Assembly (NCBI GenBank): GCA_963668625.2
Contig: CAXXKA010000006.1
Span: 800,001-864,000 of the forward strand
Reading direction: 5' to 3'
Length of the DNA stretch: 64,000 nucleotides
Source: an uncultured candidate division Zixibacteria bacterium
GTDB taxonomy: Bacteria > Zixibacteria > MSB-5A5 > UBA10806 > 4484-95
The translations under genes and the position numbers were made by a program. Under the pieces are notes generated by a model. That model was not told the DNA's origin, searched no databases, and saw only the letters and a program-made list of their open reading frames with translations. Below, one piece after another: positions 14,131-35,927 of the stretch (the stretch's first letter is position 1; the number at the start of each line of letters is the position of its first letter).

Positions 14131-14220
14131 TTGAGTAACAATCTTACTTGACATATGCAGTAAAATGGGTATATTTTGTGTGTTGTAATAAATGTAAATC
14201 AGCTTAGGGGAATAACTGCC
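14131..14220 (+). promoter_or_regulatory. Repeated intergenic promoter/RBS module (copy 4 of 4)
   Basis: Near-identical to 5461-5550. Confidence 0.7.
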
Positions 14221-15666
14221 ATGAGAAGAATATTATTAAGCGTACTGTTTATTCTTATTGCTGTACCATGCCAAGCCGGTTGGACACCCGCCGAGAGAAT
14301 ATCGGATGAGAATACGATACTCCATCCACGGATTATCTCTAAGGGCGATAATTTACATGTTATGTATAGTAAATGGATAGGTTCTGACCTTCCTTATTAT
14401 ATTCGAAGCGAAAATAACGGTTTGTCGTGGAGCGAGCCGTACATGATGATTGATACAACGATTTATTCAAATGGGGTATTTCCAGTATTGGAAGTCGTTG
14501 GTAATGTTGTTTACGCATTGTGGCGGCAGAGTTATCGGAGTATTAATCGAAGGGCTCTTGCTTTCAGGATATCTGTAAATAATGGGATTACTTGGGGGCC
14601 AATAACGAATATAGTAACTCTTAACGATGAGTATTTTCAGAAACACACATTTTGCGTATCGGGAGATAATATATTTGTAATCTATAATTATTACGATAAT
14701 GAATTAATTTATAAGTTTGTCAAAAGTACAAATTATGGGCAGACTTGGTTTGAACCGATAGAGTTGTTCCGGGCCAATGAATCTGGTTTAATAGATATGG
14801 CTTGCAGGGGGGATACGATTTATTTCGTCTGGTCCGGCAATTTTAGTTCTCAAGATAGCTGGGAGACATATTATTTAAGAAGTTTAGATGGCGGCGATAC
14901 TTGGAGCGAAAATCAATTGCTTACAGAGCCTGATGCAATAGGCTCCCAACATCCCTCTATAGCTATTAATGAGAATGGCAATGTAGCTGTGTGCTGGACT
15001 GACGGCAAATACTCCCCAAACCCCTGGAATGGAGACTTATTTGTCAGATACATTTATAATTCAGGAGAAAACTGGACACAGGAAGAACAAATAACCTTTA
15101 CTCACTGGGCTAGAGTCCCTAGAATTGTCTGGAGAAGCGATTCTATTCATGTAGCCTGGGAAGATGGACGTTATAGTGCGAGTGATCCCTTTTATATGTT
15201 AAGCCCTAATAACGGAATTAGTTGGGAACAGGAACAGCTAATTGATAATGATCCTGAAGCATCGGAATATCCGGATATAGCTTTGACTGATAGCGGTGTT
15301 CATGTAGTATGGACTGATTTCCGTATGTATGATCTGGGGCGAGGCGTTTATTATTCGCGCTTGGAACCTGATGTATTCATCGATGAAGCTGTTCCATGGG
15401 ATTACCGTACGAAATTAATATCCTATCCTAACCCCTTTAATTCAACTACGCTAATTTTATATTCGAATCCGGAAGGATGTGATTTAAATATATACGATAT
15501 CACAGGACGATTGATTAAAACGCTGTGTCTTAGGGCAACTAGAAAGGGGAATATAGCCTGGGACGCTACTGACAACTCCGGTAATTTAGTGGCAACTGGA
15601 GTTTATTTCGCAATTATGAGTACACATCTGGGGACTGTTTCAACAAAGCTTATTTTCCTAAAATAA
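14221..15666 (+). CDS. Secreted BNR beta-propeller + T9SS-type CTD, array copy 9 (most divergent, terminal)
   Basis: Start at ATG 14221; same motifs, visibly more substitutions in the core. Confidence 0.86.
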   Translation: MRRILLSVLFILIAVPCQAGWTPAERISDENTILHPRIISKGDNLHVMYSKWIGSDLPYYIRSENNGLSWSEPYMMIDTTIYSNGVFPVLEVVGNVVYALWRQSYRSINRRALAFRISVNNGITWGPITNIVTLNDEYFQKHTFCVSGDNIFVIYNYYDNELIYKFVKSTNYGQTWFEPIELFRANESGLIDMACRGDTIYFVWSGNFSSQDSWETYYLRSLDGGDTWSENQLLTEPDAIGSQHPSIAINENGNVAVCWTDGKYSPNPWNGDLFVRYIYNSGENWTQEEQITFTHWARVPRIVWRSDSIHVAWEDGRYSASDPFYMLSPNNGISWEQEQLIDNDPEASEYPDIALTDSGVHVVWTDFRMYDLGRGVYYSRLEPDVFIDEAVPWDYRTKLISYPNPFNSTTLILYSNPEGCDLNIYDITGRLIKTLCLRATRKGNIAWDATDNSGNLVATGVYFAIMSTHLGTVSTKLIFLK

Positions 15667-15698: not shown

Positions 15699-18600
15699 GT
15701 GTTAAAAGCATTTTTTAACATTAGTGTGTTAGTGTGCTTAGTATTGATGAGTTCAATGTCTCTAGCTTCGGACGAATACTGGACAGATTTGAATGCGCCG
15801 TACTGGGCTAACGGAATTGATGTGGCCGTAGGACAAACAGATACTTCGCCTGGAATCCGATATCTTATAGGTTCTAACAATGAAAATACAAACCTAATGC
15901 GATGGAATCTAATAAGCAATGGCTGGGATGATTTTTTCCCAATTTCATCATCTGTAAAGCTCGTTTCATATAAAAGAAATAACCAAGGTCTCAGAGCTTT
16001 TTGTGCTCAATCTGGAGGGGATGTTTATCGGACTAATGATGGTGGCATCAGTTGGGATCATATATTATCCATCCCAGCTAATACCAACTACAGCGCCATT
16101 GATGTGACGACATTCTTCGGTGATCCCGGACAATATATATTCGCGGGAATGGCGAGTGAAACCGGTCATGTTTCAGCATATCTTTATGATAACGATTATC
16201 AGAATGGCACATGGTTTATGCTCGGTGATGACACCCCGCAAAATAATCTGCTCTATGAGAAGGATGTTTTCGATGTCGAATGCTCTGAAACTAGAGGTGT
16301 ATATGCCGGTACTGAGGATGGTCTCTATTTTCATGACTACCCTGCAGATCCTCAAAATCAGAATCCCTGGCAACACTTGAACGCACTACAAAACTGTCAG
16401 GTACGGGCTTTAGAATCAATCGATGATATGCACGGGGAGCAGCTTGCTGCTGTTATTGATCCCGGCCAAAACAGAAAACTGTACTTCTCGGGATTAGGGA
16501 ATATATGGGAAAATCCTATTGAACTTAAACCGCGAGGGGAGTCGTTTGAGAAGCCTGTCAATGATATAGCGGGAGTTTACTGGTATAATGATCATGTGTC
16601 TTGCTATGCGGCAACGTCTGATGGATTGTATAGCATATATTTTCAACAGAACACGACTGGCGACTGTGATGAAATAGATATCGCAAACTATGCAAATGTT
16701 TTTAACTATGATAAGAATTTTATCGCAGTTGACTATTATTTCTATGATGATGAAAATAAGCACGCGAAGGTGATAGCCTCAACACCGAACAGTGTTTACG
16801 AAATACATGAGGAGAGAGATAATAATGGTACCCTGGTTAGTATCGAAGTCACCGAAATAACCAACGGCACTTATAAATGCGATGCCGCCGCTTTAACATT
16901 CCCTGAATATGTTCCGGGAGTCACCAGGAAGGTATTCATGAACACCCCGGAAGGATTAATAAAAAAAGGCAATCTGGATGATTGGAAACTTTGCGGATTA
17001 TCGAATCTCAATCATTCATCATATATAGGTACCGATGTGGTTTCAGAACCAACTGGTAATGGGATAGTAATCGCAGCATCATCAGCAAGCGAGACTGCCA
17101 ATGGCATGATCATATATTCGGGTGACTATGGGGTAACATGGCAAGAACCGGAACTGCTTCCAAATTCTATAAGGTCGCTGGCGTTGAGTCCTCATTCCGA
17201 TGAAGCTTACGCCGGCGGATATGGTCAATTGCTTTACCATAGCTCCGACAATGGTCAGATATGGTCAGGAATAATTAATATGGGCGAATTGGTTTTCGTC
17301 AATGATATCCTGGTTGATCCCGATCCGAATAGACAGAACTATATATATGTTGCCGGGTCGGTGGCTTATGGAACTACAACAAAGATCAAAGCTGGCAATG
17401 GAGGTCAGTGGTATGATATAGAGAATGGTTTAAGCGCTGTAAACAACGTATACCAATTATGTAAAAAACGCCGATGATGATGCTTTATATGCCGCTACTG
17501 ATGACGGTATATATAAAGCGGATATCTCTAACCTACAAAATGTCACCTGGGTTAGAAAAACCGATGAGATAGGTAATCCCGCGTTTGCCTCGATAGTGAA
17601 CGATCCCAATGAGAAGTACGTGCTGTTTGGATCAACTTACCCCGGTATAGGTAATCCTCACGTATATGTCAGCGCGGATTCCGGCAGGAGCTGGAACGAT
17701 TATACTCAGATTATCGGTGATGATGATGCCGATATAAGTAAATTAGCATTTTCACAAAGCGCTGAACCCGCGGTCATCGCTGGAACAGAAAAAGGATTAT
17801 ACTTTGTACCGGATATAGTTAAGTCGGGCAATCATGATTCCCACCTTGAATGGGGACCTGGAAAAATAATTGTGAACGGTGATGTGTCCAATTGGCTTTA
17901 TGGTGATTTGGAAATAGTTAATCCATGCACGCTTCTTTTTGTATATGATTTTGCTAGGAGTGATTGTGACTTCGGTTGGCAAGCATCCAAATCTGAATTG
18001 TTTCTTAAGGGCAATACTGTTAATGAAGATTTTATTGCCAATGGATCACAGCAAGATAAAATAATATTTACATCATCTCACACTACAAATCCTCAACCGG
18101 GTGACTGGGGTGGAATTACTGTTTGCTATAACTCCCATCCTTGTATCAATATGCAGCATTGTAAGGTAGAATATGCTGATTATGGTATTATTTCACATTA
18201 TGCGGCTAGACCATATAAGTTTGAAGTCACTTATTGTGAATTTAAAGATATGGTGATGGGAGGAGTAATTGTAATCTGCAATCCTCTATATTATAGCACG
18301 ATTGTAAACAAGTGTACTTTTGAGAATTGTGGTGGCTATGCATTAGAATTAGCTCGCGATAAAGAGACATTTACTCCTTCACCTTATCTCACTAATAATA
18401 CTATTATTAATAGTACTATTGGATTGATTTACGCCGGTTCAGGTAACAGCACGGACTCGAGAAAGGCTTATATAGAACATAATGTAATTCAAGATTGTGA
18501 CGAGTATGGTATTCTTGTTAGCATAAGCTATGATGCAATATATCCGCCACGCGTCGAGATAAACGATAATACGTTGACAAATATTCAAGGTACAGGCATA

Positions 18601-19380
18601 CAATTATTCGAGGTTTCAGATAAGACTGTAATAGGAGGTAATGAGTTAATAAACTCGGGAAACTATGGGGTTTACATTACAAATTCATCACCTGTTCTGG
18701 ATGAGTATTCAGGTTCACCTAACATTATTAAAGCAGCGAAAGTCGGAATATACTGCGACGGATACAGTGGTCCTTACGTTAGAAATACTGTTATCAGAAA
18801 TAGTATAAATTATGGAATTCTTGCCGAGGTGAAGGAGCCACCCGTAACATTACCTAACTTTGGCGATGTGTCTGATCCAGGAAATAATTCATTTACTTAC
18901 ATTAATCCCTCTGCAAAGTACCGAGATATATCTATAAAATATGATGGTGCACAATATGAAGTCCTAGCTCAGGGAAATTGGTGGGGAGAATATCCTCCCA
19001 ATGCTACTGAAATTACGGGTTATGTAACTTATGATCCCGCGCTGGATTATGATCCCTGGAAAGGCTATGGTAAAAGAGTCGCTAACGAGGCAAACATACC
19101 GACTAGAGTAACATTGGATCAAAATTACCCGAACCCTTTTAACCCCAGTACGGATATCTCCCTTTATATTCCAGAGACACAACAGGTATCTGTAGATATT
19201 TATAATATCCGAGGCCAGGTAGTTAAGAATCTGATTTCAGAAATCCTTAGTATTGGTCACTACACGATCCATTGGGATGGGAAAAACGAGAACAACAATG
19301 CCGTGGCATCTGGTATATATTTCTACGTTTTAACTACTGATGATGAAAAAGTGACCAAGAAAATGACGCTTTTACGATAA
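15699..19380 (+). pseudogene. Large secreted protein (beta-propeller + right-handed beta-helix + T9SS-type CTD) split by a +1 frameshift at an A6 run (~17463-17468)
   Basis: Deleting one A gives ...CKNADDDALYAATDDGIYK... in frame with ORF 17596-19380. Signal peptide, Asp-boxes, PGDWGGI, NWWG and QNYPNPFNP tail are present. May be a sequencing error. Confidence 0.75.
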
Positions 19381-19409
19381 ATCACGGTTTTAAATAAAGG
19401 AGAATTAAA

Positions 19410-19961
19410 ATGAAAAGGTTTAAAATATTAGGCTCTTTATTTATTCTGATAGTCTCGCTCTTAGTACTATCTGGCAATGTAATAGCCGGGGAAGTTATGT
19501 ATGAAATATCGAGAGGTAAAGTAATACATGACCCAGATTCCCAAAATAATAGATTTATTTTCAGACCAGAGATAGATATTTTTGGAGAGAGCACTTATAT
19601 TGTTAAGGCAACATTAAGTACTGAAATCACGCCATTAACAAACGATACGACATTCTTGGAAATAAGAATTTATCCAATAACAACAGATTGGTATGGAAAC
19701 AATGTGTCTTGGACGAATCCTTGGAATGAGCCAGGCGGTGATTTTGATGAATTACATTACGCGCATGCTCTAGTATCTTTACCTCAGGAGCAGGAGGTAA
19801 GATTCGATCTAACGAATCTGCTACAGGGATTTTGTAGTGGCAACCTGGAATATTACGGATTTATTGTAACTGTCTCAGCTAGTTCTTGGGATGCTTTCAC
19901 ATTATCCAACCTGCACTCTAATAGGCCGCTAGCGACGATAAATGTGGTGTATTTTCAATGA
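19410..19961 (+). CDS. Secreted DNRLRE/disaggregatase-like domain protein
   Basis: Signal peptide; I-x-x-A-T-L ... IYPITTDW...VSW..PW..PGGDF...FDLTNLLQ...GFIV pattern. Confidence 0.6.
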   Translation: MKRFKILGSLFILIVSLLVLSGNVIAGEVMYEISRGKVIHDPDSQNNRFIFRPEIDIFGESTYIVKATLSTEITPLTNDTTFLEIRIYPITTDWYGNNVSWTNPWNEPGGDFDELHYAHALVSLPQEQEVRFDLTNLLQGFCSGNLEYYGFIVTVSASSWDAFTLSNLHSNRPLATINVVYFQ

Positions 19962-19990
19962 TGCTAGATTAGCATTCTGAGGAGAAAAAT

Positions 19991-20019
19991 AGCGGTTTTA
20001 TATCAGTGAAACCGCTTTT
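19991..20019 (+). terminator. Probable intrinsic terminator
   Basis: AGCGGTTT...AAACCGCT stem followed by TTT. Confidence 0.45.
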
Positions 20020-20060
20020 AATTAGCGCTGTCAATTATAAGGGGATATTTACGATTTTTA

Positions 20061-20089
20061 TTGACCATCTGGTGGATAATTCTTATACT
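20061..20089 (+). promoter_or_regulatory. Sigma70-like promoter for 20186 gene
   Basis: TTGACC-17 bp-TATACT. Confidence 0.6.
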
Positions 20090-20185
20090 TATTTACAGGG
20101 GCGTAGTTTAATTATGCCCTTTTTTTCTCGTTAAGGTTGTATTAAGGCAACACGATATTTATCAGCCTAATATTTCATCGGGCGC

Positions 20186-21229
20186 GTGGTTATGGATATA
20201 TCGGATAATAAAATATCACTTATAGAATTTTTAAATGACCCATCTAATAAAAGAAATTTCATAATATTTTATAAGCTGTGTTATGCTCACGTCTACGGTT
20301 TCCTGACATATCAAAAAAGAAAAGGTTACTATTATCCTGACAATATGTATACCAGCAATGATGGTCTCAGCGATATGGCTGTTGATATACTGGGGGCGCT
20401 ATTTCGAAATGATAAGAGCAGAAAGTTTAATGTGATATATGATTACTACAAGTCTCACAACATAACCGAGTATTCATCTACAAATGTCAACGAAATATAC
20501 GACTTATTTAAGCAGCTGGTAAATAGTTTTACTCGTCAAGAGCTGAGTAAACTGAAAAAAGCCGTCGACCCGCAGATAGATAATCTAAAGCGACGAATAA
20601 AGAGTATATTAAAAAGCTCTGATTACGCCGTGTATTCAGCGAACCCATCGGGAGAGAAGTATATAAGGTTATCATCGCAGGAGCATGACAAGAATGATAG
20701 CAACTCGCCAATTGAATTTGATTCTTTACTTGATATCGCCAGGGAGGCTTATTATAGCAGTAAGAACCGGGTGGAATGGTGCTTCAATATATTTGAAACA
20801 ATAACAGATGAATATGGCCCGGCCTCTTTTGTGAAATTTCATGAGCTGATCAAGGCAATGATCCAGGTTAATGTGACTGATTTGGAGCTTTATTATAATG
20901 ACAAAACCAATAAGATAACAACGGATATTACTTACAGCGATAGTACCTTAAATGAGAAAAAGAACCTGACACTCAAATGGGTAAAGGAAGATACGTTAAG
21001 TTCTTTTGTAATCAATGGGCGGCTTGATGATGATCTGGCCGAAAGAATACTACAGGCTGTTGATAATTATCTCTCTGATTTGTTATTTTCATCCGGTACT
21101 GATGCTTTACCATTGTATTTCCGTGAGGTTATGCCGGATTCCGAACATAAATGCTATCTGGATAAGTATAAATATATCTTTGAGACAACCATCCGAAACG
21201 CTGAGGATTATCTAAAAAAGATAATTTAA
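20186..21229 (+). CDS. Hypothetical protein, putative divergent sigma-factor-like regulator
   Basis: Soluble 347-aa ORF. LSDMAVDILGALF resembles the ECF region-2 'AEDLxQExF' helix, and the gene lies directly upstream of a ZAS anti-sigma gene. The call rests mostly on context. Confidence 0.45.
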   Translation: MVMDISDNKISLIEFLNDPSNKRNFIIFYKLCYAHVYGFLTYQKRKGYYYPDNMYTSNDGLSDMAVDILGALFRNDKSRKFNVIYDYYKSHNITEYSSTNVNEIYDLFKQLVNSFTRQELSKLKKAVDPQIDNLKRRIKSILKSSDYAVYSANPSGEKYIRLSSQEHDKNDSNSPIEFDSLLDIAREAYYSSKNRVEWCFNIFETITDEYGPASFVKFHELIKAMIQVNVTDLELYYNDKTNKITTDITYSDSTLNEKKNLTLKWVKEDTLSSFVINGRLDDDLAERILQAVDNYLSDLLFSSGTDALPLYFREVMPDSEHKCYLDKYKYIFETTIRNAEDYLKKII

Positions 21230-21231
21230 TA

Positions 21232-21259
21232 TTCTACAAATAAGCTGTTTGGCAGCTAT
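21232..21259 (+). promoter_or_regulatory. Bipartite motif TTCTACAAAT-N10-GCAGCTAT (copy 1), candidate alternative-sigma promoter
   Basis: Both blocks and the spacing recur exactly at 24449-24476. Confidence 0.55.
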
Positions 21260-21268
21260 ATCATTTTA

Positions 21269-22150
21269 ATGGGGGAGGATTTGAAAGTGGCGCACCCGGA
21301 TAAAGAAAAACTTAGAGCCTACGTAGATGGCTACCTCGATAAGTTATCCACAGATGATATCATCGAGCATGTTGAGGTGTGCGAGTTCTGCGGGGAGTAT
21401 TGTGAGGAGTATCGTATGCTCTCGGATTCGATCTCAGCCGCCATGTCGATGCCGCTGCCTGAAAATGCGGTTAAATCGGCTAATAGAATTTATGAGAGTA
21501 CTTTTACAGGCAAAATTATTATGCTGAATCTCATGTCTGTAAATGATAATAGCCGCGGGATGGATTATGTTCTAGCCGCGGATGGCAATATAAAAAGCGA
21601 ACTGCCGATTCAAAATATCGCCACGCTTTTCTCCGAGGACCCTGATATCGTTCTGCAGTTGATTCGTGATCATAATAATGACTCGGATTATCTGCAGGTT
21701 ATCAGCGAAAATATCGATTTATGTTCATTCGTGATGGTACATGCTCTGGAGCTGGGCAAGGAATATATCACCGATATAAATGGCAGGGCCGCGATAGAGG
21801 ATAGGCTATCGAAAGAATATATCGATTCCAAGTGGCAGATTAGACTACCTGATTCAGTGTTTGATTTGAAGGCGCTCGAGTACGATCCAGAAAAAACAGT
21901 TTCCCGTGATATGACAGTTATCGAGAATGAAAGCGGCGATAAGATAGAGATAAATCTTCTTAAAAAAACCGTGGGCTTACAATTAGATATTCGTATTGTC
22001 GAGTTTGCTGATGGCCAAAAATACGAGGAATTAAGAATATTAGTTTCTCAAAAAGGTTCAGCTAATGTTCTCCCGATAAGCCAGGGCAAAACGGTCTCAT
22101 TTCCACTTACCTCACCGGAGGAAATAATAAGTGTCAGGATATTCGCTTAA
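21269..22150 (+). CDS. Zinc-finger (ZAS/zf-HC2) anti-sigma-like protein, soluble
   Basis: HP...LRAYVDG...IIEHVEVCEFC gives HxxxCxxC; no TM segment; internal YVLAA. The real start may be TTG 21281 or GTG 21287 after GGAGG. Confidence 0.7.
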   Translation: MGEDLKVAHPDKEKLRAYVDGYLDKLSTDDIIEHVEVCEFCGEYCEEYRMLSDSISAAMSMPLPENAVKSANRIYESTFTGKIIMLNLMSVNDNSRGMDYVLAADGNIKSELPIQNIATLFSEDPDIVLQLIRDHNNDSDYLQVISENIDLCSFVMVHALELGKEYITDINGRAAIEDRLSKEYIDSKWQIRLPDSVFDLKALEYDPEKTVSRDMTVIENESGDKIEINLLKKTVGLQLDIRIVEFADGQKYEELRILVSQKGSANVLPISQGKTVSFPLTSPEEIISVRIFA

Positions 22151-24444
22151 TGGCAAAATCTCCAGTAGCATTCGCCCGGGAATATACCCGGTTACTATCA
22201 GATATAAATAATGCTCCGTATGACGAGCGCAAAATTAACCTCCTTATAGATTTCTGGCCAGTTATTGAGCCTCATATAAATTCAATAGCATATCAAAGCT
22301 ATGTTGATGAGTACTGCTCCAGACTCAGTTTCCTGGTAAGCGAGAACTCGTTATATGATTTTAATCTCGATGAGTTGCATGAATTATCGATGGTGGTAAA
22401 CGCGCTTACAGGTAATGAGCATCTCGATAAACTGAAGGCTCGTGTCGTATATTTTAAGCTGATAACCATGCTCTTCTATATTGGTGATATACAAAACGCG
22501 ATAAAGAGCTGTTACAATTTATTAGAAATTGGTGATGCTGGTATCCCCGAGGAAAGTAACCTGCAATCGGTTGATTCTTTTATGCAACTTGAAAAGCTGG
22601 TTGAGTATTATTCTGACAGTAATAAAAGACTGGGGGAGATTCTCGGCGAGATTCATGAGAGATGGAAAGCCGAGCGGGAATGTGTCAATAACGATCGCGC
22701 GGTATGCCTGTTTGTCGAGAAGGATGGTAGAGGCGATAGTATCCGCGGCAGGATGAGAATACTCAAGGGACGAGTGGAACGAAACGATACGTCTAATTCT
22801 GGTGATGTAGACACTGTCACATTCGATAATCAAGCCAGGTCGCCGGATGATCCATTCATCGGTGTTGCTTATGAGTCGTTACAAGCTGTCAGGAAAACTC
22901 TGGCCATACAAAAGTTATCAAGCAAAAAAGATATATCCTATCGGGCTTATTTTCATATTGAAAACAGCGACCATATATTCACCGGCGATTCGATCGGGGT
23001 GGCAATGGGATTAATTTCCTATACGCAGCTTATCAAGGATGATATAGCCAGGCGGGAGAGATATATTGCCAACGAGGTAGCCTTGACCGGCGGGGTAGAT
23101 AACGAGGGGAATCTATTACCGGTTAATGAGGCTACTCTCGCTTATAAATTGAAACGGGCGTTTTTCTCACCGGTGAAATACGTTCTTGTACCGGACTCCT
23201 GTCTTGTTGTCGCGCGCGAAAGCCTGGCTGAGTCAGCGAAGCTTTATCCGAACCGTCAGATGACACTGATTGGCTGTAACTCACTATATGATGTCATAAG
23301 GGATTACAACATACTCCGCGCGGAAAAAGTATGTATGAGTCGGTATATAACCAGGTATGTGGTCAAATACAGCAGGGTCACGAAGATCCAGGTGCCGCTG
23401 CTGTTGTTATTGATTTATGGTATGCTGTGTTTGATATATCCCAAGGCGTGGGTGGGATTTGATAGGAATCCCTGGTATGTCAACCAATTAAAGTCAGGTT
23501 TTGAGGTATTTAATGCTGATTCTTTACGGCTGTGGAGTATAGATTATGGGCGTGATCTCTGCTGGGTTAAGGAATTAATTGAGCTAGATGATTTAGATAA
23601 TGATAGCTATAACGAAGTGGTTGTTGTTCCCAATGAAAGCACTGCTGTGGAAGATAACGCGCATTTATTCGTATATGACAGTAATGGCAATTTGCTTTTT
23701 GAGAGAAACTGCGGTATAGAAGGCCAGTATCCTGGCGATGAGTCAATTTCCCCGCAATTTGTCAGCGCTTATTTTAATGTGTTGAATCTTGGCGATAGAA
23801 ATATCATTCTTACCAAGGCGTTCAGGTCATACCCGGCAAGGCACCATTTGAAATTATGGGATATTGATAGTGATTCTATTGGCTGGTACATAAACGCAGG
23901 AACTACCGCCTCTAAATCAGGCACCATAGTTTATGATAATAATAAATTAATGATGATTGGTGATAACAACCGAATGATGAGAGGTGCTTTGTTTGTTTTA
24001 TTAATTGACTCTTGCTATGGAGTGTCACCGCCTTACGAGGATGACTATTACGATTTAAGCTGGGTCAAAAGGGGAAATCAGCTTTGTTATATCGTATTCC
24101 CTAATACTGATATAGAGGAGTTGATAGGTTCGCCATACAACACACCGGTATCGATGACAATTGATAAAGACAATACAGTTTTGGTCGATGTTTGCTCGAA
24201 CTCATGGGAAATGAATGAACATAAAGCAGTCATTAGTTATTGGGTAGATAGTAGTTTTCGAGTAGTCGGTGCCAGTGCAAGCGATGCATTTAAAAAGCGG
24301 CGCAATGAGCTTGTTGTCGATGGCAAGCTTGAGCCGGTTGAATTGCATCAATACTGTGAGGAATTATTAGATTCGGTGCTTTATTGGACAGATTCAGGCT
24401 GGGTAAGCGAGGCTCAGCTTCGGCTTGCAGAAAATCCGCAATAG
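22150..24444 (+). CDS. Membrane-anchored Lon-type (S16) protease-domain protein with extracytoplasmic C-terminal domain
   Basis: TGDSIG (Ser281) ... VALTGGVDNEGNLLPV..TLAYK (Lys333) matches Lon DGPSAG...AMTGEI...G.VLPIGG.KEK. TM helix at ~aa 415-437; FG-GAP-like DLDNDSYNEVVV after it; no Walker A motif seen. Confidence 0.7.
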   Translation: MAKSPVAFAREYTRLLSDINNAPYDERKINLLIDFWPVIEPHINSIAYQSYVDEYCSRLSFLVSENSLYDFNLDELHELSMVVNALTGNEHLDKLKARVVYFKLITMLFYIGDIQNAIKSCYNLLEIGDAGIPEESNLQSVDSFMQLEKLVEYYSDSNKRLGEILGEIHERWKAERECVNNDRAVCLFVEKDGRGDSIRGRMRILKGRVERNDTSNSGDVDTVTFDNQARSPDDPFIGVAYESLQAVRKTLAIQKLSSKKDISYRAYFHIENSDHIFTGDSIGVAMGLISYTQLIKDDIARRERYIANEVALTGGVDNEGNLLPVNEATLAYKLKRAFFSPVKYVLVPDSCLVVARESLAESAKLYPNRQMTLIGCNSLYDVIRDYNILRAEKVCMSRYITRYVVKYSRVTKIQVPLLLLLIYGMLCLIYPKAWVGFDRNPWYVNQLKSGFEVFNADSLRLWSIDYGRDLCWVKELIELDDLDNDSYNEVVVVPNESTAVEDNAHLFVYDSNGNLLFERNCGIEGQYPGDESISPQFVSAYFNVLNLGDRNIILTKAFRSYPARHHLKLWDIDSDSIGWYINAGTTASKSGTIVYDNNKLMMIGDNNRMMRGALFVLLIDSCYGVSPPYEDDYYDLSWVKRGNQLCYIVFPNTDIEELIGSPYNTPVSMTIDKDNTVLVDVCSNSWEMNEHKAVISYWVDSSFRVVGASASDAFKKRRNELVVDGKLEPVELHQYCEELLDSVLYWTDSGWVSEAQLRLAENPQ

Positions 24445-24448
24445 TATT

Positions 24449-24476
24449 TTCTACAAATTTCATCTTTAGCAGCTAT
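24449..24476 (+). promoter_or_regulatory. Bipartite motif TTCTACAAAT-N10-GCAGCTAT (copy 2), upstream of the C10 protease
   Basis: Identical blocks and spacing to 21232-21259. Confidence 0.55.
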
Positions 24477-24540
24477 TAGTAATATAGAGAAACAAGATAA
24501 GGTAGCTTAAATCGTGATAACTAAATTATAGGGAGATGTC

Positions 24541-27500
24541 ATGAAAAAATCAATAATTCTAACAATAGTTATATTGTTTAATTTTGCGATGCTATTCGCT
24601 GGTGAAGTTACGATAAATACCGCAATAAATGTAGCAGATAACTGGCTTTATTTCCACAGTAAAAATCTTGAAAACAGTTGGAATCAATCACAAAATCCTC
24701 TTATAGGTGATTATAAAGCTTTAGTATCGGGAAACGATACTTTAGCTTATGTATTTTTTGTTAATCCGACTGGATATATCTTAGTTGCGAAATTTAGTGA
24801 AATTGTGCCCGTTGTAGCATATTCCACTACTGAGCAATTAGAAACTAGTGGCGATTATAGTTTTGCAAGAGTATTAAAAGATGATATGCTAAAGAGAAAC
24901 AAATTAGTTGAAAATTATCTTTCTGGGAAAATCGTTCTTGATGATAGTCCCAATGGGACGCATGCTGTTGAAATAAATCGGGGGAAATGGAATTTATGGT
25001 CATTAGATGCTTATACGTTTGCAAATATTTACAATGACTACATTCCTTGCAATATCATGGATGTTGGTCCTTTGTTAGAAAGCGAATGGCATCAAAGTGA
25101 GCCATACTATGACCTATGTCCTGTTGGTAATGATGGAGGGCAATGCGTAGTTGGTTGTGTAGCAACAGCAACTGCTCAAATCATGCGGTATTGGCAATGG
25201 CCACCTTCTGGAAATGGTTCACATACATATTACTGGCGCGGTGATGGCAGTGCTCCGGGATGTAATCTCATCGGCGATTTCACCGATCCCTATAATTGGT
25301 CAAATATTCTGCTTGATTACTCTGAAGGGTATAATGATGATCAAGCTTTGGCAGTAGCTGAGTTATGCTATGAAGTGGGCGTTGGTTATGAAATGGATTA
25401 CCATGTCGGTGGTTCTGGAGCATTTACAAGCCATTGTGTTTCTGTGTTACCTGCTTATTTTAGATATGCTAATGAAATAGATCAAGAAAGCAGACCTGAC
25501 CATACAGCCGAAAGTTGGTTTAACATGATCAAAGCAGAGCTTGATTTAGCGAGACCGTTACTTTATAGGATTTACCAAACAGGCTGGGGTGGTCATGCAA
25601 TTGTATGTGATGGATGGAGAAATTCCGGCGGTGAAAATCAACTACATTTTAATTATGGCTGGGCCGATGGTCATAATACTTGGTACTCGGTTGATAACCT
25701 ATATCCCGGTTCACCGGAAAATGATCGATGTTATCTCGGTATAGTCCCAGCTTTTGAGGATGATAGATCAATTACATTATTATCCCCGAACGGCGGCGAT
25801 ACCGTATTTAATGGTAGAACAGAGCATATTACATGGGAATTTGAAGGCAATGTTGGGGATACAGTTATAATAGATCTTTGGAAGGGCGGGAGTTTCCGGT
25901 GTAATCTCGATACGGCCAGAAATATAACATGGGCAAGTTGTTATATTCCGACAAACTTGCCCGAAGATTCCGACTACAAGGTAAGGATTTCTTCCCTTGA
26001 CAATTCAGTTATCGATTTGAGCGATGCGAATTTTTTAATTATTGAGCCGCTTCCCACAGAGTTAGATACAATTCGAATATCTAATGCCTCCCAACTCCAG
26101 CAGATTGGCAGTGACGACCAACATCCGCGGAACGGATACTACGTACTGATGAATGATATAGACGCTGGCGTAATTCCAAATTGGCAACCCATTGGTCAAG
26201 ATTATCAGCATTATTTTCGAGGAACCCTTGATGGTCAAGGATTTAAAGTGTACGACCTTCAAATCGATCGCCGCTCTCAATCGTATATAGGTTTATTTTC
26301 TGTACTTATGGATAATGCTGTAGTGAAGAACCTTACAGTAGCTGATGATGGAATATATGGCTGGGGATCGGTAGGAGCCCTTGCCGGTGAATGCGCGGGA
26401 ACAGTAGTTAACTGCCATGCTTATATAGATGATCTTGAAAGTAAGGGAGGCGATAATACAGGAGGTTTGATTGGCGAAATAACTAACACTGGTAGAATTA
26501 TCAATTGCTCTGTAAGTTCATTGAATGACGGTGATGTAGAAGCGGACTCAACGGACACTAGCCCTGACTATATCGGTGGTTTTGCCGGAACCAATTCTGG
26601 CCAAATCAAATGGTGCTGGTCGGATATTACCGTTGATGGAGATCGTAGTGATTGTGAGGCTGATGGAGTTAGTGGACTTGTTGGGCAAAATGTGGGCTCA
26701 ATAATAGAATGCTATGTTAATAACCCATTAGTTGATGGCCATAATCAGGTCGGAGGTATCGCTGGTTTTCATTATTCTAATGGCTCTATAAGTAATTGTC
26801 TTGATGAGGCTCGTGTAATTTCAGATTATGCCGCCGGAGGGATTGCTGGGGAGACTGGGGGAGCATCAACTATTGATTGTTGTTTGGCAAATGGTTTTGT
26901 ACAAGGAGGTTGCCCCGGAGCGCTTGTCGGCGAACACTATGCAACAGCATCCAATTCTTTTTGGAACCGTGATAGAACAGGTATTGACCAAGTTACCTGT
27001 AATGATGGAGGTACTGTCATCAATTGTCATAGTATAAACGATACAGAAGCCAAACTCCAAGCTACCTATACTTCACAATATAGTACTAATTGGGATTTTT
27101 CTAATGTTTGGGCTATTAATAACGGCGTTAGCTATCCAAGGTTGAGAGGAATAGGGCCCATGCTTCAATCCCCGACTGGACTTTTGGCTTCTCAAGATCA
27201 ATCGGACGGTGTACATTTATCATGGAGCCATAGAACTTATCTTGTTCCTAATCCGGGGGGAGATTCACTTGGTCCATACAATGCAGTTTATCGGGTTTTT
27301 CGCTCAACGATACCGAATGCAAACCCGCCTGAAACCGAATTGACATCCGGGTGGCAAACAGGCATTACATTTCTTGATGTCACTGCTCTTTCTGGAACAA
27401 GTTACTATTATTACATAAAAGCCGCAGCGACTTTCAATGGTGCCCGTGAAAGTGGGTATAGTAGCTATGTACAAGGCCAACGTATTTTTGAATCACTTTC

Positions 27501-28077
27501 TGCTCCAACCAGTGTTTATGCCAGTGATGGTCTAGATAACGAGATTTATATTCGCTGTAACAACGTTCCTAATGCCAATTATTATTGTGCTTTCAGGGCA
27601 AACTCTATAGGTGGAACAAAAACACCATTGGGAAACTGGCAGGAAACCCCATCTTTTCTAGATACGCCTCCGCTTCCTGACACAATATATTATTATTGGA
27701 TAAAGGCGGCTGTTGATAATTCCGGCGGGAGAGAGAGTGACTATGGCGGCCCTGATAGCGGTTATTATGAAGTAATGGTCGATGTCAAGGATGATGAAGA
27801 GTATCTTATTCCTGATGCTTTTTCTATCGGGCAAAATTATCCCAATCCCTTCAATGCAAGTACAATAATAGAATATGCATTACCTCAAGCCTCAGATGTC
27901 TCCATTAAAATCTATGATGTTTTGGGACGTAAGGTTAAAAACCTTGTAAATGAGTACAAACAAGCCGGTATGCACCAAGCTGTATTTAACGCTAGTGACC
28001 TCAGTTCAGGAATATATTTTTATCGAATAGAGGTTGGCAAGTTTACTGAATCTAAAAAGTTGTTGCTGGTAAAATGA
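24541..28077 (+). CDS. Secreted C10-family (streptopain-like) cysteine peptidase with Spi-like prodomain, GLUG-like repeats, FN3-like domains and T9SS-type CTD
   Basis: WHQSEPY, CVVGCVATATAQIMRYW (catalytic Cys), GGHAIVCDG (His), HFNYGW; FRGTLDGQG..V.DL and VGGIAG repeats; QNYPNPFN tail. Confidence 0.88.
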   Translation: MKKSIILTIVILFNFAMLFAGEVTINTAINVADNWLYFHSKNLENSWNQSQNPLIGDYKALVSGNDTLAYVFFVNPTGYILVAKFSEIVPVVAYSTTEQLETSGDYSFARVLKDDMLKRNKLVENYLSGKIVLDDSPNGTHAVEINRGKWNLWSLDAYTFANIYNDYIPCNIMDVGPLLESEWHQSEPYYDLCPVGNDGGQCVVGCVATATAQIMRYWQWPPSGNGSHTYYWRGDGSAPGCNLIGDFTDPYNWSNILLDYSEGYNDDQALAVAELCYEVGVGYEMDYHVGGSGAFTSHCVSVLPAYFRYANEIDQESRPDHTAESWFNMIKAELDLARPLLYRIYQTGWGGHAIVCDGWRNSGGENQLHFNYGWADGHNTWYSVDNLYPGSPENDRCYLGIVPAFEDDRSITLLSPNGGDTVFNGRTEHITWEFEGNVGDTVIIDLWKGGSFRCNLDTARNITWASCYIPTNLPEDSDYKVRISSLDNSVIDLSDANFLIIEPLPTELDTIRISNASQLQQIGSDDQHPRNGYYVLMNDIDAGVIPNWQPIGQDYQHYFRGTLDGQGFKVYDLQIDRRSQSYIGLFSVLMDNAVVKNLTVADDGIYGWGSVGALAGECAGTVVNCHAYIDDLESKGGDNTGGLIGEITNTGRIINCSVSSLNDGDVEADSTDTSPDYIGGFAGTNSGQIKWCWSDITVDGDRSDCEADGVSGLVGQNVGSIIECYVNNPLVDGHNQVGGIAGFHYSNGSISNCLDEARVISDYAAGGIAGETGGASTIDCCLANGFVQGGCPGALVGEHYATASNSFWNRDRTGIDQVTCNDGGTVINCHSINDTEAKLQATYTSQYSTNWDFSNVWAINNGVSYPRLRGIGPMLQSPTGLLASQDQSDGVHLSWSHRTYLVPNPGGDSLGPYNAVYRVFRSTIPNANPPETELTSGWQTGITFLDVTALSGTSYYYYIKAAATFNGARESGYSSYVQGQRIFESLSAPTSVYASDGLDNEIYIRCNNVPNANYYCAFRANSIGGTKTPLGNWQETPSFLDTPPLPDTIYYYWIKAAVDNSGGRESDYGGPDSGYYEVMVDVKDDEEYLIPDAFSIGQNYPNPFNASTIIEYALPQASDVSIKIYDVLGRKVKNLVNEYKQAGMHQAVFNASDLSSGIYFYRIEVGKFTESKKLLLVK

Positions 28078-28112
28078 TAGATAATACTTAGCACACCAAC
28101 CACAGGGGCAAA

Positions 28113-28147
28113 GCCGGGGATATCATTTCGATACCCCGGCTTTTTTC
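28113..28147 (+). terminator. Intrinsic terminator (possibly bidirectional)
   Basis: GCCGGGG..TATC/GATA..CCCCGGC hairpin + TTTTTT, preceded by AAA. Confidence 0.75.
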
Positions 28148-28151
28148 ATTA

Positions 28152-29042
28152 CTATAGATGATCTCCCGGTGAATATTTGCGATGGCTCATTCTCAGGCCC
28201 TCTAAATTTAACACCTGGTTGATGTAACGTTGGGTGGTGCCCAGATCGGAGTGGCCGAGGAGAATTTGCAGATGTTGGGCCGGCATCCCGGAGCGGGCGA
28301 GGAAAGTGGCCGCGCTGTGACGTAAAAGATGCGGGTTTGTTTTAGAGCCGATCTTCTTTCCGAGCCGCCCGAGGATCCTGTGAAATATGCGTTTGCCAAC
28401 CTGGTTGCCCTCTTTCGTGCAGAACAACCATTCGGATTGGTTGACGCCTCTAATCTCCAGGTATTTGAGGATCGCTAGTTTCGATTTGTGGCCAATCGGT
28501 ACGAACCTGTCTTTTTCGCCTTTGCCTATTATATGGATTGAGTTTTTCCTGTAATCAATATCCTCAAGGGTGATCGAGACAGTCTCGTTAAGACGGATAG
28601 CCGTGTCCCACATCAGGAGAATCATCGATTTTGTTCGCTGGACGTAAAACTCATCACCTTTGATAGCCTCGAGCAGCAGTTTAATCTTATGCGGCCCTAA
28701 TACCGGTTTGAGTTTTTTGGGTTCATTCATCAGGGATAAACCGCGCATGATATTCTCGCTGATATACCCCTCTTTATGGAGAAAGGTGAAAAAGGCTTTT
28801 ACCACACGTATGTAATGGTTGACACTGGCAGGCGCTAATCCCGTCTCTTTTTTCATCAGGACGAGCCTTTTGATTGCGTTACGATGGGCTTTTGATAAAT
28901 CGCCTAATTGATTTTGCATTTCATTTAGATGCCACCTGTAGTCATTAATAGTTGACCGCGAAAGACCCCGAAATTGGCAATCTTCGAGAAATAGAATAGT
29001 GGTGTCATAGGTCGCTTGATTAGTAAACATAAAGACCTCCAT
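28152..29042 (-). CDS. Tyrosine recombinase/integrase (XerC/D-like)
   Basis: DTAIRLNE (R), GKGEKDR (K), PHLLRHS (HxxR), LGHSDLGTTQRY (H, Y). Confidence 0.9.
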   Translation of the reverse strand: MEVFMFTNQATYDTTILFLEDCQFRGLSRSTINDYRWHLNEMQNQLGDLSKAHRNAIKRLVLMKKETGLAPASVNHYIRVVKAFFTFLHKEGYISENIMRGLSLMNEPKKLKPVLGPHKIKLLLEAIKGDEFYVQRTKSMILLMWDTAIRLNETVSITLEDIDYRKNSIHIIGKGEKDRFVPIGHKSKLAILKYLEIRGVNQSEWLFCTKEGNQVGKRIFHRILGRLGKKIGSKTNPHLLRHSAATFLARSGMPAQHLQILLGHSDLGTTQRYINQVLNLEGLRMSHRKYSPGDHL

Positions 29043-29197: not shown

Positions 29198-29958
29198 ATG
29201 AAATGTCATTTTAAAGAGTTAGTTAGCATTGTCGATGATGTTAATATGAAAGGGGCCTTAAAATTATTCGAATATCACATTCGAACCAAGAATCTATCCC
29301 CTAAAACAATATCTGTTTATGGCGAAAGGTTGGGGTATTTCTATCGCTTTTTGAAAAAGAATCGCTTGCCGTTTGAGTCAGTATCAAAGAGCACGATCCA
29401 GGAGTATATTTTATTCCAAAAAGACCGCGGCCTGGCAGATATCTCTATAAATGGCCAGGTAAAAGTATTGAAGATATTTTTCAAGTTCCTCTTAGAGGAA
29501 GGAATGGTAGAGGAAGACCCGGCAGAGAAGATAGATTTGCTTAAAACAGAGAAGCGGATCAAACCGATTATATCAGAAGAAGAGATAGAGAAACTGTTAT
29601 CTGTCCCTGATAAAAAGACCTATACTGGAATGAGGAATTTCTGTATGATTATTGTTTTCTATGATACGTTGGTAAGATTAAGCGAGCTTATAAATATCAA
29701 AATTAAAGATATCGACCTGGATAGCGGGACAATTCTTATCTTCGGTAAAGGACGTAAAGAACGCATTGTACCCATAGGCACCAAGACTATTAAGTATATC
29801 TACAAATTCCTAATGAATCACAGGCGTGATATAAACGGCGACTATCTGTTTTGCACAATGCAGGGAAGACCGTTAGATCATAGAAACGTGCTGAGGATTC
29901 TTCAGAGAATTGGTGATAAAGTAAATGTGCATGTTAGCCCACACTTAATTAGGCACAG
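29198..29958 (+). pseudogene. Tyrosine integrase truncated just after the HxxRHS motif by IS insertion
   Basis: DTLVRLSE, GKGRKER, SPHLIRHS, then IS-derived sequence; lacks LGH...Y. Confidence 0.85.
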
Positions 29959-30045
29959 TGTATCTTGTCAGAGCCTACCGTGCCATTTTGGCATTTGAGT
30001 TAAGAGATGGTTTTGGTTAGCTTAACCTGATGAAAGGAGCTGGCC

Positions 30046-30417
30046 ATGACTAAAGACAACAATCATAATCCGGAATCTGTAGTGCGGGAGATTCGCCGTA
30101 AAACCATGAAGAAGTATTCCTCTGAGGAGAAGATTCGTATTGTTTTGGAGGGTTTGAAGGGGGAGGAAAGCATCGCCGCGATTTGCCGAAGAGAGGGTAT
30201 TGTGCCGAATCTCTACTATCGCTGGAGTAAGGATTTTTTAGAGGCAGGTAAGAAACGATTGCAGGGAGATACGGTTCGGGAGGCTAACAGCGCTGAGGTA
30301 AACGGTATAAAGCAGGAGAACGATCAGTTGAAGCAGCTGGCAGCTGAGTTGTTGCTGAAGAATCGGGTGCTCAAAAAAAGCTTGAATGGTTTGGAGTCAG
30401 GCTTGGGCGGTGTATGA
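30046..30417 (+). CDS. Transposase OrfA (HTH)
   Basis: KYSSEEKIRIVLEGLKGEESIAAICRREGI..NLYYRW; A7G slippery site near 30373. Confidence 0.85.
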   Translation: MTKDNNHNPESVVREIRRKTMKKYSSEEKIRIVLEGLKGEESIAAICRREGIVPNLYYRWSKDFLEAGKKRLQGDTVREANSAEVNGIKQENDQLKQLAAELLLKNRVLKKSLNGLESGLGGV

Positions 30418-31400
30418 GATATGCCCAAGCTGAGAAGATGGAGATAATCAGGACGGTGGAGAACTCGGAACTGAGTGTCAGGAAAACCCTCTTGGAGCTT
30501 GATATCAACCGGGGCACGTTCTACGAGTGGTACAGGCGGTATCGAGAGTATGGTTATGATGGTCTGGCCAACAGGAAGACATCGCCAAGGAAGTTCTGGA
30601 ACCGTATCCCCGATCAGGTAAAGTAGCAAGTTGTTGATATAGCTCTGGAGCATCCTGATAAGTCCCCGAGAGAGCTGGCCTGGTATATCACCGATACCCA
30701 GGAGTACTTTATCTCGGAATCGAGTGTTTACCGGACATTGAAGGCTTACGATCTGATCACCTCGCCAGCCTACATCGTTTTAAGGGCCTCGGATAAGTTC
30801 AAACATCCGACCACCGGGATAAACGAGCTCTGGCAGACTAATTTTACCTATTTCAAGATAGTCGGCTGGGGCTGGTATTACCTGTCTACGGTTATGGATG
30901 ATTATTCGAGGTATATCATCTCCTGGAAACTGTTTAGCTCGATGACTGCTGATGATGTCAAACAGACACTGGATATTGCGATTGATATCACCGGTATCGA
31001 TGCAATTCACGTTCTAAACAAACCGAGACTGCTGTCGGATAACGGTCCCTGCTATCTGGCAGCCCAACTCAAGGAGTATCTCGACAGCCATCACATGGAG
31101 CATACCCGAGGCGCTCCCTATCATTCCCAGACACAGGGCAAGATCGAGCGGTACCACCGCACCATGAAGAACCTGATCAAACTTCAACATTACTATCTGC
31201 CTGGTGAGTTGGAACATGAGATCGAGCAGTTCGTGGAGTACTACAATAATCAGAGATATCATGAATCACTGGATAATTTAACACCTGCCGATGTTTACTA
31301 TGGTAGAGATTTAGATATTTTAAGTAAGCGAGATGAGATCAAAAAGAGGACGTTAAGTCTTAGAAAACAACAAAATATGAGAAAGCAGGTTTTAGCTTGA
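30414..31400 (+). pseudogene. Transposase OrfB with in-frame TAG at 30624-30626
   Basis: ORFs 30414-30626 and 30738-31400 are in the same frame; WQTNFTY (first catalytic D replaced by N), SDNGPCY, QGKIER. Confidence 0.82.
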
Positions 31401-33962: not shown

Positions 33963-34026
33963 TGAGAATATAATTTGAAATGTGTGTGTAGTTTATTTTG
34001 TTAAATTGATGATTGAAGGAGAACTT

Positions 34027-35904: not shown

Positions 35905-35927
35905 ATAATAAATAAAATGTTTAACAT

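Follow-up and report, generated by a model that had tools for sequence, protein, structure and literature searches.

The 64,000-nucleotide (nt) stretch analysed here, referred to as the window (C6:800001-864000), comes from the 4.3 Mb, 95.9% complete genome of an uncultured candidate division Zixibacteria bacterium, and carries a three-gene cassette in which, on our reading, a Lon protease built like a receptor operates a sigma/anti-sigma switch across the membrane; we place the probability of the full mechanism set out below at about 0.55. The cassette comprises ORF1, a sigma-like factor, ORF2, a soluble zinc-binding anti-sigma (ZAS)-like protein, and a Lon-like membrane protease, and it is followed by the gene of a secreted C10 cysteine protease. 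The folds, invariant residues, membrane topology, gene linkage, motif positions with their genome-wide specificity and the predicted ORF1:ORF2 interface were all computed directly. The four open reading frames (ORFs) lie on the same strand (+), with the coordinates and lengths (347, 293, 764 and 1178 amino acids, aa) given in an initial annotation made from the sequence, of which only the start of ORF2 required revision. The features of the locus, in window coordinates, are as follows:

20061..20089, + strand: housekeeping-type promoter of ORF1, TTGACC-17-TATACT, by strict pattern match
20186..21229, + strand: ORF1, divergent sigma-like factor, 347 aa, on structure and context
21232..21260, + strand: motif copy A, promoter-like, TTCTAC (21232-21237)-N18-CTATA (21256-21260), 55 nt before GTG 21287
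21269..22150, + strand: ORF2, soluble ZAS anti-sigma-like protein, 293 aa, with an N-terminal zinc domain (about 1-85) and an invariant L-A-A-D-G at 102-106
22150..24444, + strand: Lon-like receptor protease, with a helical N-domain (1-177), Lon protease domain (about 178-394), transmembrane (TM) segment (410-437) and beta-propeller (439-738)
24449..24477, + strand: motif copy B, promoter-like, TTCTAC (24449-24454)-N18-CTATT (24473-24477), the best site in the genome
24541..28077, + strand: C10 cysteine protease, with a signal peptide, I69-like propeptide, GLUG region and type IX secretion system (T9SS) C-terminal sorting domain

ORF1 has an alternative start at ATG 20192, which gives the 345-aa form held in the database as P0075. 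The start of ORF2 is more likely to be GTG 21287, giving a 287-aa protein beginning MAHPDKE; a GGAGG lies 8 nt upstream, and this start agrees with those of the homologs and of database protein P0081. Residue numbers for ORF2 follow the 293-aa form (start 21269) throughout. The ORF2 stop and the Lon-like start overlap (TAATG). Scans against Pfam, NCBIfam and PADLOC gave no significant match for ORF1, the window ORF2 or the Lon-like protein.

The initial annotation had called for a survey of whether the three genes form a conserved triad, and their distribution indicates that they do. We collected 33 loci around Lon-like genes, of which the 30 with at least 2 kb of upstream sequence are informative; ORF1, ORF2 and the Lon-like gene are colinear and directly adjoining in 26 of these, with ORF1 split in one (L008). 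A divergent subfamily, termed class 2, in which the Lon-like protein has a shorter N-domain, has an ORF2-like gene in 12 of 12 loci and an ORF1-like gene in 11 of the 12, so the genes do co-occur outside the window. In a survey of 285 genomes from the phylum, 105 have the Lon-like gene and 87 have ORF1, and the tallies of the two genes mirror each other by family (f3, 15/21 and 16/21; f7, 43/108 and 37/108; f20, 9/15 and 9/15), except in f15 and f16, where the propeller part alone was matched. The named relatives that carry the Lon-like gene are mostly Zixibacteria metagenome-assembled genomes. The cassette is single-copy in the source genome and is present in one of the nine other genomes of its family. 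Two further loci depart from the usual arrangement. At L058 (6242-11755, - strand) RHS/YD-repeat-like ORFs on the opposite strand occupy the place of the Lon-like gene and ORF2 diverges over its last 30 or so residues, the cassette being degraded here. L027 is atypical, with an extended ORF2, a short Lon-like ORF and no detected ORF1.

The Lon-like family comprises 74 clusters, and in its 54 aligned sequences the residues G279, S281, K333 and R336 are invariant (54/54); the catalytic serine and lysine are also kept in all 12 class-2 sequences. Alignment by hhalign with the LonA of the source genome places S281 on the serine of DGPSAG and K333 on the lysine before ALAA, residues that we take to be the LonA catalytic dyad. 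In the AlphaFold2 (AF2) model of the protein (predicted local distance difference test score, pLDDT, 89.9) residues from about 178 to 394 adopt the Lon proteolytic fold, with VIA Z-scores of 19.8-20.8 (1rr9_A: Z 19.8, root-mean-square deviation (rmsd) 2.5 Å, 174 of 182 residues aligned), and a Foldseek comparison of the model with Lon domains gave an E-value of 2.3e-8. RadA and ComM match at Z 16-17, and the match to CalpL (7qda_A) is weaker, at Z 11.7 over 137 aligned residues. No AAA+ ATPase family was found by Pfam in the protein or its family. Residues 1-177 of the model are instead all-helical, and residues 70-177 align with the helical segment that precedes the LonA protease domain (6u5z_A, 247 residues aligned).

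A single hydrophobic TM segment spans residues 410-437; it is preceded by five lysine or arginine residues and followed by two, and we therefore place the N-terminus and the protease domain in the cytoplasm. Beyond it, residues 439-738 form a beta-propeller (Z 11-13.3), in agreement with FG-GAP_3 matches in 9 of the 54 family members and a profile match to 6mlt_A (E 1.1e-4). The intact Lon S16 dyad, the lack of an AAA+ module, the one TM helix and the external FG-GAP-like domain were all recovered as first described, and the proposed joining of a Lon domain to an extracellular sensor is in keeping with them. Outside the cassette, proteins of about 700 aa in families f15 and f16 (for example G206:C5:184903-185859) match only the TM and propeller part of the family profile (about 421-660), and the genomes that encode them have no ORF1 homolog; it therefore seems that the TM-propeller sensor module has been combined with different cytoplasmic parts as well.

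No relatives of ORF2 came from a word-based search, and its 27 homologs were recovered from the loci around Lon-like genes. The HxxxCxxC ligands H34, C38 and C41 are invariant in the 28 sequences, and H9 is nearly so, in a spacing that we take to equal that of ChrR-type ZAS domains; class-2 ORF2-like proteins retain C...HxxxCxxC in 12 of 12 cases. The Pfam family zf-HC2 is matched by 5 of the 28 members, with a best E-value of 7.6e-9, and the ORF2 of the window is not among them; the NCBIfam ChrR model gives E 0.026, below its cut-off. Against solved chains the family profile returned a weak match to RsiW (E 0.012) and one to 3hug_B (E 2.3), and within the source genome it picked out two ORFs lying directly after genuine extracytoplasmic function (ECF) sigma genes (E 2.2e-4 and 4.4e-4). 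The protein has no TM segment and is predicted to be soluble, and its C-terminal two thirds matched no family. Judged by its ligands, ORF2 is a putative ZAS anti-sigma-like protein, in keeping with the soluble HxxxCxxC protein first described at this position.

The case for ORF1 as a sigma-like factor is a structural one. The protein is soluble, with no 19-residue hydrophobic window of 1.6 or more, and its AF2 model has a pLDDT of 83.9 and a predicted TM-score of 0.43. In a wide VIA search, the matches that cover residues 1-131 are sigma factors in 11 of 11 cases, at Z 5.4-7.2: pro-sigmaK (Z 7.2, rmsd 3.2, 98 residues aligned), BldN (6.4), RpoS (6.1), SigB (6.0), CnrH (5.7), SigA domain 2 (5.6), and SigI6, sigma32, SigK, sigmaS and WhiG (5.4-5.5). 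A second structural look at the N-domain gave sigma factors in 26 of 27 matches (SigB, Z 6.9, rmsd 2.7 Å, 86 aligned; SigW and AlgU, 6.6), two of which reach residue 230 or so against sigma-2 plus sigma-3. Through the consistency of these matches, not their strength, the modelled N-domain (about 1-131) appears sigma-2-like. The C-domain (244-347) is helical and is the most conserved part of the protein in both subfamilies; its residue 329 is lysine in 26 of 26 class-1 sequences and arginine in 10 of 11 of class 2. Matches spanning both ends of ORF1 were limited to the whole chains of SigB, sigma32, sigmaS and WhiG, at rmsd 9-26 Å.

The family of ORF1 is large, with 1,082 representative clusters at E <= 0.001 and 136 at E <= 1e-30. 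Ten divergent or long relatives gave no sigma family in Pfam, and in the ESM Atlas the whole protein retrieved unnamed clusters only and residues 245-347 no usable match. ORF1 is accordingly termed sigma-like and not a member of a sigma family, since structure and context point that way and every sequence test fails. The weak resemblance to sigma region 2 noted by the initial annotation thus has consistent structural matches behind it and none in sequence; among the profiles it expected, sigma2 appeared as a structural resemblance, zf-HC2 and Lon_C (the latter in 4 of the 54 Lon-like proteins) in a minority of family members, and sigma4 not among the matches listed. In one relative, P0207 (951 aa), an ORF1-like module at residues 624-948 stands behind about 620 residues with no Pfam match, and the protein is possibly a fusion that contains the sigma-like factor.

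A complex between ORF1 and ORF2 is predicted. It was modelled with ESMFold2, in place of the AlphaFold-multimer run that had been suggested, and gave an ipSAE of 0.71 (runs of 0.71, 0.71 and 0.69) against 0.00 for the best of three controls; the mark used for this tool is reached by 58 of 80 solved complexes and by 2 of 110 mismatched pairs. The runs share at least 82% of their contacts, and the pLDDT of the partner is at least 77. In the predicted interface the ZAS domain of ORF2 (residues 9, 20 and 37-81) lies on residues 5-80 of ORF1, with smaller ORF1 patches at 189-195 and 229-235. The main patch presumably corresponds to the helices that match the core-binding face of sigma-2.

The DNA between the genes provides a further line of evidence. 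Upstream of ORF1, the strict housekeeping-type pattern TTGACN-N16-18-TANNNT is present in 17 of 26 loci, against a mean of 0.575 and a maximum of 3 in shuffled sequence and 39 matches among 890 background tiles; it occurs in none of the 26 gaps past the Lon-like gene. At this latter position we find a second motif, TTCTAC-N18-CTATT in the window. Written loosely as T[TC]C[TCG][AG]C-N18-CTA[ATC][AT], it has 52 matches in 1.18 Mb; 26 of them, spread over 26 of 41 loci, fall between -60 and +250 relative to the Lon-like stop, and many of the remainder sit at the ORF1/ORF2 junction. With a leave-one-out matrix and a threshold of at least 14 bits, a site past the Lon-like stop is found in 24 of 39 loci, against three matches among 1.13 million positions elsewhere. 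In 25 of 28 class-1 loci the best-scoring site ahead of ORF2 lies at -53 to -63, and the window copy stands at -55 from the revised start.

For the source genome we used a matrix trained on the post-Lon sites of the other class-1 loci together with that of the window. At 12 bits or more it gave 13 matches in the genome, and the top two are the copies of the cassette: copy B at 24449 (43.7 bits, in the training set), 5 nt past the Lon-like stop and 64 nt ahead of the C10 ATG, and copy A at 21232 (26.9 bits, not in training). The third-best match scores 19.1 bits, and copy B reaches 29.5 bits when left out. The -35 half also follows the ORF1 subfamily. When sites were chosen with position 5 of the first element hidden, 37 of 39 class-1 sites had A there and 17 of 17 class-2 sites had G, and this holds for both copies of a locus. 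We considered copy A as a conserved C-terminal peptide of ORF1 and rejected this; it is variously read as N-S-T-I-R, holds the stop codon (CTATAA) or, in the window, lies past the stop, and this varied reading across loci indicates that the DNA and not the peptide is conserved.

These properties, two short elements at fixed spacing in two fixed places per locus with a -35 half that follows the ORF1 subfamily, are those of a cognate bipartite promoter, and we infer that ORF1 is its reader. On the simplest reading the promoter is recognised by the factor that the cassette itself encodes, so that ORF1 would be made constitutively, ORF2 and the Lon-like gene would be under feedback control and the downstream gene would be the output. 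Directly past the -10 element of the ORF1 promoter, at the 5' end of the ORF1 leader, lies a terminator-like hairpin with seven U (20097-20121; -13 kcal/mol, z -3.9). It is present in 1 of 17 loci, that of the window, and a role as a conserved attenuator was ruled out. No terminator-like site was found between the Lon-like gene and C10, and an Rfam scan of 19300-28400 returned only a sub-threshold L20_leader (E 0.39).

A candidate cleavage site was identified in ORF2 beyond the zinc domain. Residues 102-106 read [L/M]-A-A-D-[G/S/T] in 28 of 28 class-1 homologs (24 L and 4 M at the first position; 23 G, 4 S and 1 T at the last), in the midst of gapped and variable columns; class-2 proteins have [L/I]-A-A in 12 of 12 (11 L, 1 I) followed by Q, K or E, and [LMI]-A-A is therefore kept in 40 of 40 homologs of the two classes. 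In the CalpL system, CalpL cuts CalpT in a poorly structured region to expose a degron ending in LAA, and cellular proteases are needed to free CalpS; the same text describes how cleavage of RseA exposes VAA for ClpXP (10.1101/2024.05.08.593097). The tmRNA tag of the source genome ends in AMAA, and both clpP and clpX are present. By analogy with these systems, we propose that ORF2 may be cut after A104, exposing an ssrA-like degron. The initial annotation had envisaged a one-step transmembrane proteolytic switch; the protease does itself span the membrane, but a two-step route, a Lon cut followed by degron-directed degradation, seems likelier. ARAGORN found two tmRNA genes with the same tag, GDDYSYAMAA, at C6 155-508 and complement 18059-18413; they are inverted, 18 kb apart and near the contig end, and could be a real duplication or an assembly repeat.

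The C10 protein of the window matches Peptidase_C10 over the whole profile (E 1.2e-50, 1-194 of 194), with Por_Secre_tail (1.2e-12), TIGR04183 (1.1e-13) and Inhibitor_I69 (3.5e-5), and among the proteins of the source genome is a T9SS sortase of PorU type (681.8 bits, with a cut-off of 420). In 31 of 36 loci the Lon-like gene is followed, with a start no more than 900 nt away, by an ORF of 150 aa or more in the same direction. A home-made hidden Markov model (HMM) of the T9SS-like tail matches 16 of these 31, and as ten were seeds of the HMM this leaves 6 of 21 non-seeds, to be read against a background in the source genome of 220 tail-bearing ORFs among the 3,915 six-frame ORFs that reach 150 aa. 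The ten tail-bearing proteins scanned with Pfam, chosen by their tails, are all T9SS cargo with FG-GAP, CBM, dockerin or PD40 domains, and eight of nine scanned tail-less proteins have LVIVD, dockerin/cohesin, FG-GAP or CarboxypepD_reg domains. A C10 gene stands downstream in the window only; the one other C10 homolog, at L027 (10833-13961, -), lies on the opposite strand and shares 42% identity over 378 residues. We therefore rejected C10 as a conserved fourth member of the cassette, as only its T9SS tail matches the downstream genes elsewhere. The suggestion that C10 is the output would hold in the window, where copy B precedes the gene, and not at other loci; C10 is likely to be the output gene in the source genome alone, its place being taken elsewhere by varied secreted proteins.

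Taken together, these data are consistent with the following mechanism. ORF1, made from a housekeeping promoter, would be held inactive by ORF2, whose ZAS N-domain would cover the sigma-2-like domain. The Lon protease domain would face the cytoplasm and the beta-propeller the outside, where it would sense an extracytoplasmic signal; the signal would render the Lon domains active, plausibly by clustering as in CalpL. Active Lon would then cut ORF2 in the exposed stretch past the ZAS domain, at the invariant [L/M/I]-A-A or directly beside it, and the ZAS fragment with its ssrA-like tail would be removed by ClpXP or another housekeeping protease. The freed ORF1 would guide RNA polymerase (RNAP) to the two TTCTAC-N18-CTATT promoters, of which that before ORF2 and the Lon-like gene would give negative feedback and reset, and the second would drive the downstream secreted-protein gene, here the T9SS-exported C10 protease. 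The inferred steps are the binding of RNAP by ORF1, the cut made in ORF2 by the Lon domain together with its position and the resulting degron, the role of clustering in activation, and the kind of signal that is sensed. A more far-reaching version is attractive but tentative, and we hold it to be clearly less probable than the mechanism as just given: a single-pass receptor with a Lon output, in which clustering of the propeller leads to an [LMI]-A-A clip of ORF2 and the release of the founding member of a large sigma-70-like clade (the 1,082 clusters, in which a front part like sigma-2/sigma-3 would be joined to a new type of C-domain that reads promoters), each member controlling a secreted-protein regulon of one or two promoters.

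A number of observations weigh against the proposed mechanism. The structural matches of ORF1 lie in the range (Z 5.4-7.2) where, as the tool warns, common helical arrangements can match. No sigma family was found by Pfam in any of the 26 ORF1 family members at E <= 0.01, hhalign against nine ECF sigmas of the source genome gave a probability of 1.6%, a profile search of PDB sequences with ORF1 gave no match, and the best E-value from Foldseek with the whole ORF1 model was not below 0.39. The C-domain resembles lambda Q (Z 7.1), POLRMT and TFIIB-like helical domains (Z 4.5-7.1), and no sigma-4-specific entry appears for it in the match lists, which one domain can fill; this absence is a gap in the lists and not evidence for a different fold. 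The C-domain also lies outside the predicted interface with ORF2, an arrangement from which classical class I anti-sigma complexes differ. At the DNA level, no more than 10 of 40 loci have a copy A of at least 14 bits and 15 of 39 have no copy B at that threshold, and the A/G change at position 5, being a contrast of two clades, may be a single evolutionary event. Four of the 30 informative loci have no detectable ORF1: in L027 ORF2 alone was detected, and in L013, L031 and L033 neither of the two genes. One genome, that of the degraded locus L058, has ORF1 and ORF2 with no Lon-like gene. Finally, it is gene order alone that connects the Lon domain with ORF2, and [LMI]-A-A might be no more than a structural feature within the ORF2 C-domain.

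In a first alternative reading, ORF1 and ORF2 are a sigma-like/ZAS pair triggered by cytoplasmic thiol oxidation or zinc loss, as in RsrA, and the Lon-like protein has a separate or secondary role, clearing ORF2 or ORF1 for reset or acting in secreted-protein quality control. RsrA is an established case of a soluble ZAS protein that senses redox state, ORF2 is soluble with invariant ZAS ligands, and the computed link between it and the Lon domain is one of gene order. Many ZAS proteins, however, ChrR and RslA among them, do not act as simple redox switches, and this reading leaves the invariant [LMI]-A-A in its variable stretch unexplained; furthermore, the Lon-like gene is translationally coupled to ORF2, is kept in both subfamilies with an invariant dyad and mirrors the distribution of ORF1 across the phylum. 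We consider it unlikely. An equally doubtful proposal is that ORF1 is not a sigma factor but an RNAP-associated activator or DNA-binding regulator, with its sigma-2-like N-domain and Q- or TFIIB-like C-domain, that works with the housekeeping sigma, is sequestered by ORF2 and uses the motif as its binding site. It would account for the absence of sequence similarity to sigma families, for the best C-domain matches being to lambda Q and TFIIB-like domains and not sigma-4, and for a length some 150 residues greater than that of the ECF sigmas of the source genome (178-214 aa). Yet the geometry of the motif is of sigma-70 type, two short elements at fixed spacing 40-150 nt before start codons, and none of the 26 post-Lon gaps holds a housekeeping-type promoter for such a factor to assist. 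ZAS domains bind sigma factors, and ORF2 is predicted to sit over two N-terminal helices of ORF1.

The protease itself might be inactive as such, serving as a membrane tether or partner-switch that binds ORF2 on signal and pulls it off ORF1. Lon-fold domains without protease activity exist, RadA being one, and both RadA and ComM are among the structural matches; the helical N-domain could serve for docking. The invariance of G279, S281, K333 and R336, retention of the serine and lysine throughout class 2 and their alignment with the LonA dyad would be unexpected for a scaffold, and make this idea improbable. Least probable of all, to the point that we give it little weight, is an anti-phage or abortive-infection module of CalpL type that lies beside secreted-protein genes by chance. 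The Lon/anti-sigma/sigma logic is that of CalpL-CalpT-CalpS, the distribution of the cassette is patchy and integrase and transposase genes lie past C10. However, PADLOC was negative for the three proteins, the sensor is a beta-propeller outside the cytoplasm and not a SAVED or other nucleotide-sensing domain, the similarity to CalpL is much weaker than that to housekeeping Lon domains (Z 11.7 against 19-20), and the motif in the source genome points to a secreted protease gene.

The proposed switch may be compared with several known systems. It shares with CalpL-CalpT-CalpS an ATPase-less Lon domain, a two-part anti-sigma of about 290-300 aa with a sigma-holding N-part and a sigma output, and the LAA-ending degron in a part of CalpT with little structure resembles the [LMI]-A-A that ORF2 keeps in a variable stretch. 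Unlike CalpL, the sensor here is an extracytoplasmic propeller behind a TM segment and not a cytoplasmic SAVED domain that binds cyclic tetra-adenylate (cA4); the anti-sigma is of ZAS type, the sigma-like partner is about 350 aa long and unrecognisable by sequence, and the Lon domain is nearer to LonA/LonB (Z 19-20). No CRISPR-associated family was found among the window ORFs scanned, and PADLOC reported no defence match for the three proteins. With ChrR-SigE, RsrA-SigR and RsiW-SigW the cassette has in common the zinc ligands, the order of sigma then anti-sigma gene and the predicted covering of a sigma-2-like domain. It differs from these pairs in that the partner is not an ECF sigma by sequence, that ORF2 has a C-terminal domain without a family and that a membrane Lon-like protease accompanies the pair as a fixed partner; the sigma-like gene, moreover, is not autoregulated but has a housekeeping-type promoter, and it is the anti-sigma and protease genes that carry the specific motif.

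Proteolysis of an anti-sigma in response to an extracytoplasmic signal, with a new C-terminus serving as degron, is also the principle of DegS/RseP-RseA-SigE and PrsW/RasP-RsiW. In contrast to this regulated intramembrane proteolysis, the anti-sigma here has no TM segment; a membrane-spanning protease would carry the signal, and neither a site-1/site-2 relay nor an intramembrane cut would be needed. Membrane anchoring is known for archaeal LonB. The Lon family more widely, including LonA, LonB, LonC and the Lon-like domains of BrxL and RadA, shares the proteolytic fold and the Ser-Lys dyad; in the Lon-like protein there is no AAA+ core and only a helical N-domain, and the TM segment after the protease domain leads to an outside propeller. 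One editorial names a membrane-anchored archaeal LonB. The literature searched held no description of the sigma-like/ZAS/Lon-receptor arrangement or of a Lon-TM-propeller architecture, and the main text of a reclassification of ECF sigmas (PMC7826278) does not contain the term 'Lon', though its supplements may list gene-context families. The system would work like CalpL-CalpT-CalpS and the envelope-stress cascades, and is a member of neither; it has neither SAVED nor a CRISPR link, and it lacks a membrane anti-sigma and a site-2 protease.

The surroundings of the cassette are rich in secreted proteins and mobile elements. Upstream, window positions 58-15666 hold about eight tandem paralogous ORFs of 443-497 aa; scans of six of them identified BNR_2 (sialidase-like) proteins, of which five have T9SS tails, and the array is broken by an insertion sequence (IS) element on the opposite strand (5595-6761; DUF4372 and DDE_Tnp_1). 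Further T9SS cargo (15699-19380) and a gene for a DNRLRE-domain protein (19410-19961) follow. None of these, the array, the cargo or the DNRLRE gene, has a TTCTAC-N18-CTATT motif of 12 bits or more. On the 3' side of C10 are two tyrosine-recombinase ORFs (28152-29042, -, Phage_integrase E 4.8e-34; 29198-29998, +) and beyond them an IS3-like orfA/orfB pair (30046-30417 and 30738-31400, the second with an rve domain). These neighbours and the patchy distribution suggest that the cassette lies at the edge of a mobile or rearranged region. Further along, positions 34001-36000 are low in G+C (0.303, against about 0.40-0.47 around them) with a high GC skew (0.33), and the sole ORF of at least 200 aa there (35224-35904) has no Pfam match.

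The known routes from the envelope to a sigma factor use a membrane-spanning anti-sigma and a two-protease relay, or a partner switch; in the arrangement proposed here the protease would be the receptor and the anti-sigma soluble. If this is correct, the joining of a Lon protease with an anti-sigma, as in CalpL, would be a wider signalling design and not a one-off of phage defence. A family of sigma-like factors that every sequence profile misses implies that alternative sigma factors in the Fibrobacteres-Chlorobi-Bacteroidetes (FCB) group may be undercounted. Furthermore, the cassette is compact, with one motif, one anti-sigma, one protease and an apparent regulon of two promoters in 4.3 Mb, which makes it testable and a possible orthogonal switch.

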